A stretch of 64,000 nucleotides of DNA from Bispira polyomma. Its lineage: Eukaryota. Positions 7,495 to 12,011 of this stretch are shown in pieces. The stretch spans positions 21,762,001 to 21,826,000 of the forward strand of contig OZ287750.1 of assembly GCA_965649765.1 (NCBI GenBank), written 5' to 3'. A program made the position numbers and the translations under genes. The notes under the pieces were generated by a model, which saw only the letters and a list, made by a program, of their open reading frames with translations, was not told the origin of the DNA and did not search any database. Numbering within the stretch: the stretch's first letter is position 1; each line of letters opens with the position of its first letter.

Positions 7495-8718
7495 ATGCCA
7501 CCTAAATCTTACAACACCAGGAGTAAACGCAAGGAGCGGTGTTCAGCTTGTCGTTCTGTGCATAACTCTCCTCTGGGTAATTTGTGTAGGAAAAAGAGAG
7601 CTATGGATCGCTCCTTGTCATCAGAAGGTGAACAGGTGCAGACTCCAGGACTTCCTTCCACTTCTACACAGAGGCCAGAAACTGCAGAGGTATCACTAGC
7701 GACGGTGGACGAATCTCAATCCCAGACAGACGTGAGAGGTAAGGCCCCCAAGAAACGCGCTAAACGGAAGACGGCAAACGTCAACGTTCTGACCAAGCTG
7801 GATAGAATGATGAACAGGTTCACTGAGATAGAAGAGAGGCTAGATGCCTAGGAGCGGGTGAGAGACTCTGACTTGTCGTTGGAGCCGGTGCCGTCGGCTC
7901 ACAGCTCGCCGAAACGCAGGACCTCCATTCGCCGAGATGCCGCCGAGCCGGCTCGCCCTACTGACAGACTACCCACCATGGAGTTCCTCAGAACAGATTC
8001 AGCGATCCAGAAGGAAGTCGAGAGAAGACTGCGTCAGTATCAGGACTTTTCAAGGGACGAAATTACAGGTATGCTACCTTCTAAGTTAAAGTCGGGACGT
8101 TATCGATTGGGGGATCAGCGAGTAAAAGTACCTGTAACATGGCCACATGAGCATTGTATGCTTTCAGACACCTTAAAAATGCCTACTTATGAAGAACTTT
8201 CTATATACCAGTGGGTGCAGGGTTTTGCCCGTTGTGTGCAGCTGGAGACCAATGAAGCAGTGAAGCAGAATATGCTGAAGTATCAGTATAATCTGATGCA
8301 GGATGCGGTGGATCTATTGTGGCCTACTGCCAAACGGGCTCACGCGTCCATTTTGTCGGAAATGCAAAGAGGCATGGTGTCCTGAGAGGACCCTGTAGAA
8401 ATCGACCGTATAAGGCAGAAGTTTACACAGAGAGCCCTTAAGGCAAGTTCTAACACTGGGGGGCTGGGAGGCCATAAGGACTACAACAGTAACAAAGACG
8501 TTTCGGGAAAAATAAATGTGTGTGCCAAATTCGCCAAGGGCAGTTGCAAATTCGAACACGACCACTATGAAGGAGGTCGTTTGCAGAAGCACTCCTGTGG
8601 CTATTGTTACCGAGTAGTCAGGAAAAACTATGACCACCCGGAAACCAAGTGTAACAGGAAGCAGAAGGAGACAAGTAAGGGTACCACGACTGAGGACAAG
8701 GCTGAACAGCGAGTTTGA
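7495..8718 (+). pseudogene. gag-like ORF1 of YR element 2 with two in-frame stops
   Basis: ORF-track pieces 7435, 7858 and 8518 share one frame, broken by TAG at 7849 and TGA at 8383 (probably once TGG). N-terminal CxxCxxxH..C motif and C-terminal Cys/His fingers (CAKFAKGSC..H, HSCGYC..H..C). Confidence 0.85.
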
Positions 8719-11012
8719 TCAGGTGAGTCGGTTCTCTCCAAGTATTAAATGGGTGATCCCTGTCAGCTGTAACACTACAGTATTAGTAAACAAATTCGAC
8801 ACCAAAGGTATTTTATACAGCAGGTTCTGGGGAAATAGGCATTTAGGCAGCTGTAACTGTAAATGGTGTAGTAAGGACCACTTCTGGTTAACACAGGGAC
8901 ACCCAATTGTGGAGGGAGGCGAATCACAAGCGCAAAGGTTGCGTCTTATTAACAACCATGATACTGAAGTTATTGTTGATAACACTGATAGTAGTGGTGA
9001 AATAGTAGTTGAGTGCGTTATAAAGAACAGTATGGACAGTAACAGTACTAATAATAGTAGTAGTAGAGACTTCCCCATGTGGGAAATCGAGATAAATGAA
9101 GTTTAAGTTGCTCTAGCGTTGAATTGTCCCAACATTCAGTTAATGTTAGCTCAGCTATATTGCAAGGGCAGTTTGGTACGAGTGTTAGCCAATTAAGGTT
9201 TACTGAAGGCATAAGCCCCACCCAATTGGCCCATTCAATGCAAGACTCTGGGGTCACAATTAACTCGGCAGAAACCTTGGGTAAGTGGCTGAGGGGCTTT
9301 GTTCCTAGTAGGCCTGTGCAATATTTATCTCACAGAACTGAAGCCCGGAACTTGAGTGACACTGACATGGTTAGCTGGGTTAAACAAGCTCATGCCCTCG
9401 CCCAAGTAGAACAATGCCCTAATTATAGGGGGGCCAGAATATCAGTCCCCTCACAGTTAAACATAAAGGCGTGGCATTCCTACCTTAGGGATTACGACTT
9501 TAATGTGGTTTGTGAATACTTGGAATATGGTTTCCCCCTTTCCCTTGATTATGACCAGTTTCAATATAGTAAAACTACAGTGAATCATGCCTCAGCTTCT
9601 AATTACCCCCGGCATGTAGCTAAGTATCTCAGCACTGAAATCCAGTTTAAGGCTATTATAGGTCCTTTGGCTGAGAGCCCCTTCCCGAATTTACATGTAT
9701 CCCCTTTGATGTCTCGCCCCAAGCCCGACGGGAGTAGACGCATTATAGTAGATCTCTCATGGCCTAAAGGCAGAAGTGTAAACAGTTGCATTCCCAAGGA
9801 TGTGTTTGATGAGGTCGAGTTTAAATTGTCCTATCCTACTATAGATGATTTAGTGGATCAGATAGCCTTGATAGGCCCTACAGCCCTTATATATAAAATC
9901 GACCTCAAATGAGCATATCATAATTTGAGGAGTGATCCATATGACTATGGGGCCTTGGGGATAAGTTGGGAGGGCAATTACTATGTGGACGTAAGTGTGC
10001 CCTTCGGGCTCTCCTCGGGGGCCAGCGCGTGTCAGATGACGTCAGACTGCGTCACTCACTTGTTGCGTCGGATTGGCCACTGGACGTGCGCGTATTTAGA
10101 TGATTTTTTGGGCGTTGCGCCTCCCAGAAAGGCTAGTGCTGGGTTTAACTCCCTCAAGATTTTAATCACAGAATTAGGCCTCCCAATTAATTGCGAAAAG
10201 GTAGATTCCCCCTCAGAAAGTGTTACATGTTTGGGGATTAATGTCAATGCTCGCACGGGGTCCTGACGATACCAGCAGGTAAACTTAGCGAAATCAGCCA
10301 ATTATGTAAACAATGGACTCACAAGTCCTGGGCCACATGCAGAGAGTTACAACAATTGCTAGGCAAATTGATCTACATACACCGTTGTGTTAAGCCGGCC
10401 AGGCTGTTCGTTAACAGGATTTTGGGGGTGTTAAGAGGCACTCCCCCTCATACTAAGGTCCCCTTGAATGATTCATTTCACAAAGACATTAATTGGTTTT
10501 GTGTATTTTTACACGAGTACAATGGGGTTACAGCCATTCACCAAATTAACTCCCCTAGAAAACAATTGTTTGTAGATGCTTCACTGCAAAGTTTAGGGGC
10601 GTATTGGGAAGGGCAAATTTATAGCGTGGATATTCCCCAAGAGTATAAACAACACCTAGGTATTGTGCATTTCGAGATGTGTAACATATTGATTGCCTTT
10701 ACACTATGGGGTGATTGTTGGAGGGATACAAGCGTTTGTGTCCATTGCAACAATATGGCTGTGGTCCATATACTTAATAAGTCAAAAGGTAAAGATGTCT
10801 TTCTGACTGCTTGTGCCAGGACATTATGGTTAATTCAGGCCAAGTTTAACATAAACATGGAACACGTTCGTGGAAGTAACAATACATATGCAGATATATT
10901 GTCACGTTGGCAACATTTTTACAGCAAAAACAAAGCCGAGGTTCTATACCTGAAGACATGTAATTGGTGCCCGGTGGACATTCAATGGTCAAAACCTAAT
11001 TATAACATTTGA
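8630..11012 (+). pseudogene. pol: reverse transcriptase plus RNase H of YR element 2 (disrupted)
   Basis: RT motifs RRIIVDLSWP, KIDLK*AY, VPFGLSSG, YLDD (10093-10104). RNase H motifs VDAS, HFEM, CNN (D replaced by N), ADILSR. Lesions: frameshift at ~9100, TGA at 9910 (probably from CGA), frameshift at ~10261. Confidence 0.93.
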
Positions 11013-12011
11013 TTCTTGTAGGTAACAGCCTTTCCAGACGGTTACTGCAGGATGTCCACACACGCATCTCTATTGGTTTCAGGCCTCGGACCTCCACGGC
11101 ATATCAATCTAAATTCAGGCTGTACATAGCCTTTCTGTCTCACCTTAGAATTCAGGTCCCCCACGACCTTAATCCAGTCTTACTATTCCTCGAGTTCCTG
11201 GCCCAGCAGGGACTCAGGTCACAGACACTACAAGGCTACTTAGCTGTACTTAACCACTTCTTCCAGATGTACGACTTCCCCTTGCAGGTGTTAAAACATA
11301 GAAAAGTTCATCTCATGATCAAGGCGGTGTCTCATAATGCACCCCTCAGATATAGAGTCAAAGGAGTGCTGTCTATACGCAAACTTATGCAGATAATATC
11401 ACTGGTATCCCAGTTTCCAGGGGCTAAGGTACACAAAGCTATCATACTATTAGGGTTCTTTGGTTTCTTTAGGCTTGCTACCTTGGTTCCGTCTAAAGCG
11501 ACTCTTTATCACCCCTCAAGGTTTCCCACACCACGGGACGTAGTTTGGGGGGCCCCCAGGGCACACATAATAACTAAGTGTGCAAAGAACATGCAGGTGT
11601 CAGGGCAAGCGCAAGTGGTTCAGGTCCCCAGGCTCCCTGGCTCCCCATTATGCCCAGTACAGGCTCTGCGTGATATTTGCCCCCCCCAACCCCTGTTCAA
11701 ACAAAACCCCCCTTTTTCAATACACACACTTAGGTGCACACGTGGTGGTTACAGCCTTCCACGTACGTAAAGTTTTCTCTGCCCTAGTGCAGCAAGTAGG
11801 CCTCATCCCAGCTGAATATGGCTTCCATGCTCTTAGAAGGTCGGCTGCTTCATGGGCTTTCGACCATCACGTTGACCTCCAACACATTAAGGTACATGGT
11901 GGCTGGCGTTCAGATGCCATCTGGCGTTACTTGGTGAAAAGTCCAAAAACAGCAGGACTAGTAGCAGCTGCCTTTCACACACACTTAACCACAGCACACA
12001 CCTACAATTAA
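11009..12011 (+). pseudogene. Tyrosine recombinase ORF3 of YR element 2 (one frameshift in the C-run at 11680-11687)
   Basis: N-terminal core-binding-like region followed by FFRL, HALRRS, HGGWRS, WRYL. No ATG at the start of the ORF. Confidence 0.93.

Follow-up and report, generated by a model that had tools for sequence, protein, structure and literature searches.

Introduction

Ngaro-like retrotransposons, in the order DIRS, are described as carrying a gag-like first open reading frame (ORF1), a pol frame for reverse transcriptase and RNase H (RT/RNase H) and a tyrosine recombinase (YR), in that order and without a methyltransferase (available portions of PMC9210276, PMC4157794, PMC8547959 and PMC3783388), with split direct repeats (PMC9210276, PMC8547959, same portions). 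No intron is described in those portions. The sole model of expression that was found invokes a -1 frameshift out of pol: according to a quotation in PMC13003380, Poulter and Butler (2015) have YR overlapping, in the -1 frame, the last part of RT/RNase H and regard programmed frameshifting as its probable means of expression. How Ngaro elements express a recombinase that has no fixed start codon is unsettled, and the frameshift model in print is a guess. The present analysis concerns an element at positions 7165–12442 of a 64 000 nucleotide (nt) stretch of the Bispira polyomma genome (assembly GCA_965649765.1, contig OZ287750.1, positions 21 762 001–21 826 000, forward strand), hereafter the window. 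This element shares the Ngaro-like order of ORFs, the lack of a methyltransferase and, in its relatives, the A1-ORFs-B1-A2-B2 arrangement of repeats. Its lineage very probably (probability about 0.88) makes YR from a spliced mRNA, through a predicted phase-1 intron that runs from the middle of gag to the start of YR.

Foamy virus Pol and the env of retroviruses and gypsy elements come from spliced subgenomic mRNAs. Foamy virus Pol resembles the present case in being a downstream enzyme expressed apart from a Gag-Pol readthrough route but, as far as the available text of PMC3196705 goes, it is not a Gag fusion, whereas here the donor lies ~190–260 codons into gag and a whole Gag module would be kept. 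In plant Ty1/copia elements a conserved alternative splice likewise sets a protein ratio; the available part of that report (Oberlin et al., PMC5580714) describes a short Gag-only RNA as its product, whereas the splice predicted here skips pol and joins half of Gag to the integrating enzyme. Recombinases of the Cre and XerC type have the core-binding and catalytic domains of the predicted YR model but differ from the predicted product, which bears a Gag-derived N-terminal extension of 185–260 amino acids (aa). The arm-binding N-terminal extension of lambda Int is loosely similar to this one and, as far as tested, unrelated to it. A spliced Gag-YR was not found for Ngaro or DIRS elements in the literature searched, which did not extend to the main Ngaro reviews, supplements or Repbase, so that an earlier description is possible; nor was a splice-made fusion of half of Gag to an integrating enzyme found described there for any retroelement. 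The element is of a known kind, and its expression plan looks like a new variant.

A predicted intron between gag and the recombinase

The predicted intron and the exon ahead of it comprise the following features (a slash in a sequence marks the cut).

7495–8068, plus strand: coding part of exon 1, predicted, 191 codons and the first base of a Gly codon
7540–7587, plus strand: N-terminal CxxCxxxH..PxG..C motif, putative zinc finger with presumed zinc binding
7792–8052, plus strand: two conserved helical-looking blocks of exon 1 (KLD..F..LEER and LP..LR...IQ.EV.RRL), linker variable; possible coiled coil, judged from the residue pattern
8066–8074, plus strand: predicted splice donor CAG/GTATGC, phase 1, directly upstream of the conserved Gag core (KSG..WPHE)
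8069–11021, plus strand: predicted intron of 2953 nt, holding the Gag core, the C-terminal Cys/His fingers and the whole of pol
10995–11000, plus strand: branch-like CCTAAT with its A at -22, doubling as Pro-Asn codons of pol
11016–11022, plus strand: predicted splice acceptor TTGTAG/G, pattern TTNYAG, phase 1

The original prediction had been made from this stretch alone. Its donor ACAG/GTATGC (8068/8069), branch-like CCTAAT (10995–11000) and acceptor ATTCTTGTAG/GT (11021/11022) all lie where it had put them. Both sites are in phase 1, with 8068 as the first position of a gag codon and 11022–11023 as the second and third positions of a YR codon, and the in-frame junction DEIT-G-NSLSRR is reproduced from the sequence. 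The splice would drop the Gag core and the whole of pol and leave an N-terminal Gag-YR fusion, Gag(N)-YR, of ~510–580 aa. The length of about 520 aa foreseen for the window's family holds for unbroken relatives (191 codons plus a 329 aa YR) but not for the window copy, which is too damaged: stops interrupt its gag in exon 1 (7849) and again at 8383, its pol has breaks and its YR frame is disrupted. The exon-1 stop and the disrupted YR frame keep it from making the fusion itself. Fusions of 510–581 aa are predicted in the 27 copies with both parts open, and introns in relatives are mostly 2.8–3.7 kb long. In the window's family the YR frame is closed five codons upstream of the acceptor, with residue 83 as its first Met.

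Within the exon-1 proteins compared (n=18), residues C19, H23 and G28 of the zinc-finger-like motif are invariant and C16 and C31 nearly so. The donor lies within a variable linker that separates the conserved helical blocks from the Gag core, which is what a modular front half of Gag would lead one to expect. Comparison with relatives, which had been proposed as a check on the prediction, bore it out: the position and phase of both sites are conserved, including in element 1 upstream (L050), which has a TAG/GTAAGA donor and a TTGTAG/GT acceptor. The 3' part of that element occupies window positions 3–599, its gag and YR are open and its YR is ~38 % identical to the one studied here; its tail contains long direct repeats (626–1105 and 2172–2679).

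Conservation of the predicted splice sites

A DNA search of the 1.04 Gb genome with the element gave 90 matches of 69–100 % identity. From the DNA and YR searches 87 loci were taken, with open YR frames favoured. A cut-off of 80 % nucleotide identity in YR sorted them into 33 families, one internally deleted copy being merged into its family. YR identity across these families, all from one genome, reaches down to about 30 %. The acceptor was mapped in 84 loci (seven re-anchored by hand, by 1–16 nt, where the protein alignment slid) and the donor in 76 (four anchored by hand). Because the families are related, their counts are not independent trials, and comparison with other Gly codons of the same gene is the fair control. 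Among loci L012–L016, L041 and L042 (G000:C2:10.84–11.24 Mb), five near-identical copies share an internal deletion of ~1.6 kb that spares both splice sites and probably reflects duplication of a block.

At the donor, GT was present in 75 of the 76 mapped copies, and G/GT and GTA in 73 each. Where the frame stayed open for at least 90 codons past the donor (26 family representatives), the donor codon was GGT in 25 and AGT in one. All 25 donor Gly codons were therefore GGT; of the remaining Gag Gly codons in these stretches, GGT accounts for 83 of 269. All four codons are used in six further conserved Gly columns of Gag, so the silent sites of Gag are otherwise well diverged. The next base was A in 26 of 26 representatives, although the residue that it begins is K, M, I or T. 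In the 13 families with a whole open gag, G/GTA at the donor was the sole Gag position present in every one, and other frequent GTs in Gag lie mostly within Val or Cys codons. The wider context fits the MAG/GTRAG-like donor of a spliceosomal GT-AG intron, with positions +4 to +6 weak in some families, and the two halves of the site compensate for each other: the nine families that lack both +4A and +5G all finish the exon with a complete CAG, and those in which the exon end is weak carry GTAAG.

The acceptor AG was kept in 83 of 84 mapped copies. With one copy taken per family, T at -6 and -5, Y at -3 and G at -1 were present in 33 of 33 and A at -2 in 32, giving TTNYAG in 32 of the 33, which fits YAG with a T-rich tract. 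In the YR frame the site encodes no fixed residue (V, T, A, P, S, L, I or Q), and in most families it lies past the pol stop, so protein constraint fails to explain it. A branch-like CCTAAY overlapping Pro-Asn codons was found in 18 of 19 families of the window's clade and was scattered or absent in the other clades. Donor and acceptor are constrained at the nucleotide level beyond what the proteins need.

Similar sites recur in deeper relatives. In a third clade (20 loci in 15 families, their YR ~30 % identical to the distant query), 17 of the 20 loci have a phase-1 TNYAG 56 or 59 nt upstream of a conserved YR anchor; of the other three, one has the site displaced by a deletion, one is a frameshifted copy with the site out of phase and one lacks it. 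In the same clade a phase-1 G/GTA stands just ahead of the Gag core motif at 14 of the 15 loci where that motif was found. A further 60 YR loci were mostly chosen for their unusual frames; 36 of them could be mapped, and 31 of these have AG at the mapped position. A profile search with exon 1 returned 150 database proteins, 53 of them with the pattern of helices, linker and core and 48 with a Gly in the linker. The residue after this Gly was K, N, M, T or I, all with codons beginning in A, in 40 of 48 (R or S in seven, another in one), compared with 143 of 572 for the same class of residue after other Gag glycines, a comparison that a K-rich linker may inflate. At the protein level these residues would fit a G/GTA donor in other genomes.

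Alternative routes to the recombinase

The YR residues T24, Y28 and R33 are invariant, and the SAM-like domain spans residues ~16–82. In 20 of 33 families no in-frame ATG precedes residue 24 and the residues and domain named lie upstream of the first Met; over all the families the first Met stands anywhere from residue 9 to residue 219. The N-terminus of YR must therefore be translated. The original prediction had called YR ATG-less, and this applies to those 20 families; in the other 13 an in-frame ATG does precede residue 24, at no fixed position.

The first alternative is that YR is made as a Pol-YR protein, by programmed -1 ribosomal frameshifting from the end of RT/RNase H or by stop readthrough, with the splice-like sites incidental or secondary. 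In the window's family and eight others, YR overlaps pol by a few codons in the -1 frame, matching the review's description; fungal Ngaro YRs can share a frame with RT/RNase H (PMC3783388, available part); and in four copies the YR frame is open upstream into pol. However, the relation between the two frames is not stable. In the 23 families with a clean pol end (a hand count that omits ten families with damaged, unmapped or open ends), YR is in the -1 frame in nine, in the +1 frame in seven and in the same frame behind a stop in seven, and eight have no overlap. At least seven changes of frame are needed on the YR tree of these families, for one of which the YR of a sister copy was used, while the splice phase is constant; this is evidence against the proposed -1 frameshift. 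An in-register slippery heptamer was found in none of the nine -1 families, the single heptamer of XXXYYYZ type being out of the pol register when read by hand. Frameshifting also leaves the invariant TTNYAG and the silent-site constraint at the gag donor unexplained. Splicing is the only route common to all families; a Pol-YR origin of the recombinase is very improbable, and frameshifting could still be a minor route in some families. The four open copies (L104, L107, L108 and L116) have 215–493 codons open into pol and an intact acceptor, and represent single mutations or natural Pol-YR families. Long YR frames of 539–816 aa, considered as candidate Gag-YR fusions, proved to be pol-YR.

A second alternative, of similarly low probability, accepts both sites as real but does not join them, or not only them, to each other: the partner of the gag donor would be some other acceptor (one serving pol, for instance), and a different upstream exon would be joined to the YR acceptor. 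Pol, like YR, has no conserved ATG, which such a scheme would accommodate. Against it, both sites are in phase 1 in all three clades, and no second gag donor is conserved beyond amino-acid need, although pol and the 5' leader were not systematically scanned. The donor-like CAG/GTGAGT past the gag stop (8722/8723) was considered as a second donor and is not conserved. A third possibility, separate translation of YR, whether driven by an internal promoter or through re-initiation at a non-AUG or downstream codon, would suit the 13 families with an early ATG but is barely credible given the scatter of the first Met, the loss of the entire SAM-like domain by a start at Met83 in the window's family and a donor left unexplained.

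Several points weigh against splicing between these two sites. The splice is predicted from genomic sequence, and no spliced molecule was observed. Conservation holds for the donor and the acceptor separately, and it is their shared phase that suggests that they pair. Weak donors occur (GTATTT, GTACTG and GTATTG), ranking fifth or sixth of ~70 GTs when scored with a weight matrix, and the branch site is inseparable from pol coding. To these may be added the early in-frame ATG of 13 families, the four frames open into pol and the K-rich linker of the database proteins. Nearly all DNA evidence comes from one genome and from families that are related.

Spliced RNA would retain both terminal repeats, yet searches with junction patterns, covering part of the families and allowing few mismatches, found no intron-less copy; the patterns had either no match or matches at chance level, and the loci inspected (for one pattern, 30 of 56 matches) were not Gag-YR junctions. 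None was present in the upstream regions of the 60 further YR loci, 58 of which have RNase H upstream while two are disrupted by other DNA. No donor-to-acceptor joint occurs among the joints listed from DNA-like contigs, which come from three runs of unrecorded kind that behave as genomic DNA of one study. The rarity of intron-less copies suggests that spliced RNA is rarely copied, for example through a packaging signal inside the intron. The 150 database Gag hits include no Gag(N)-YR fusion, a weak test in that most are short or unspliced-looking gene calls, and no fusion was apparent by length among 31 and 90 database YR hits (up to 367 aa). Metagenome scans returned no relative, and sequence searches of a protein atlas and PDB nothing informative.

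Proposed expression and role of the Gag half

Under the splicing model a single transcript would start from A1, and its unspliced form would serve as genome and as the message for gag and pol. Sub-optimal donors would let only a fraction of the RNA splice, setting the dose of YR, and gag would provide the start codon. The helical blocks of the fusion might then co-assemble with Gag, and YR would thereby reach the cDNA in the particle.

The original prediction had offered routing into the particle and targeting as roles of the Gag half. Loading of YR into the particle by co-assembly with Gag is preferred here, at about even odds. A targeting role is doubtful; it is raised by a report on Cafeteria Ngaros in which, in the text available, loss of ORF1 coincides with changed insertion preference (PMC8547959), which would suggest that ORF1 steers insertion. 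No shared target sequence was visible, by eye, in the flanks of 13 copies. That the Gag half supplies a start codon and nothing else is just as doubtful.

It is slightly favoured that a spliced Gag(N)-recombinase is the form in which Ngaro elements as a whole produce their integrating enzyme, with a Gag half that loads it into the particle or steers insertion. If so, the real integrase of the group would be a protein of ~520 aa with zinc finger, coiled coil and YR, published YR annotations would be truncated at the N-terminus, and the frameshift model would be wrong for the group. The splice model could also account for the link between ORF1 loss and insertion preference in Cafeteria (PMC8547959, as available). 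It defines a protein to purify for integration studies, and a conserved splice gives a precise and cheap test in species with Ngaro RNA (zebrafish, Xenopus and newt).

Layout, decay and surroundings of the element

Window positions 7165–12442 hold a decayed retrotransposon with a gag-like ORF1, an RT/RNase H pol and a YR, laid out as follows.

7165–7351, plus strand: A1 terminal repeat, ends approximate; matches the internal A2 of full-length relatives, with a B-to-A joint (12442 to 7167) in DNA contigs
7495–8718, plus strand: gag-like ORF1, with stops at 7849 and 8383 in the window copy, open in relatives
8618–11012, plus strand: pol, with N-terminal extension, RT and RNase H and no methyltransferase; broken, ~300 bp gone near 9100
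11021–12011, plus strand: YR ORF, with the SAM-like core-binding domain (residues ~16–82) and then the catalytic domain; frame broken near 11680–11720
12026–12442, plus strand: B1 repeat; the A2-B2 that follow in full-length relatives are absent

This is a Ngaro-type YR retrotransposon by its ORF order, repeats, lack of a methyltransferase and YR residues. The gag-like, RT/RNase H and YR frames follow one another on a single strand, as the Ngaro-like plan requires. Split direct repeats, A1-[ORFs]-B1-A2-B2, are found in family members and relatives, and the window copy has only A1 and B1. Pol stops ~35 aa past the last RNase H motif, and Pfam gives no methyltransferase match. A DIRS1-like or PAT-like identity was rejected, with no methyltransferase and with repeats that are direct rather than inverted with an internal complementary region. 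Across 25 YRs, R151, K189, H269, H292 and Y303 of the catalytic set are invariant and R272 nearly so, in keeping with the R..H-x-x-R..H/W..Y pattern of such enzymes. The predicted YR model matches Cre over the core-binding and catalytic domains (Foldseek E value 1.7e-7, TM about 0.52–0.56). No SGNH hydrolase ORF was seen downstream of YR in the window copy.

With B1 as its last part (12442 onward), the window copy has the form that recombination between B1 and B2 would yield. Of 13 copies from several clades, most have TG (usually CTG) as the end of B, both at the B1-A2 joint and at the 3' end, a likely crossover core. At the end of gag (8707–8722), GTT followed by any of the three stops occurs in 11 of 12 families of the window's clade (comparison loci L034, L051, L059, L073, L075, L077, L078, L081, L086, L089 and L091). 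Pol there reads in the +1 frame through TTT, without a conserved ATG, making this a candidate +1 frameshift site for pol. The extension of pol ahead of RT (~8810–8875) has a conserved FWxxxHLGxCxCxWC-like motif and then a low-complexity stretch of S, N and T.

Inverted arms of 34 nt flank the element (~6312–6345 and 12506–12540), and an array of CTGTCGAC repeats adjoins it (6660–7160). Arms and array together are probably another mobile element that served as the insertion site. Unrelated repeats elsewhere in the window are a 56 bp tandem array and a 59 bp repeat family (35594–36453 and 25759–28220).

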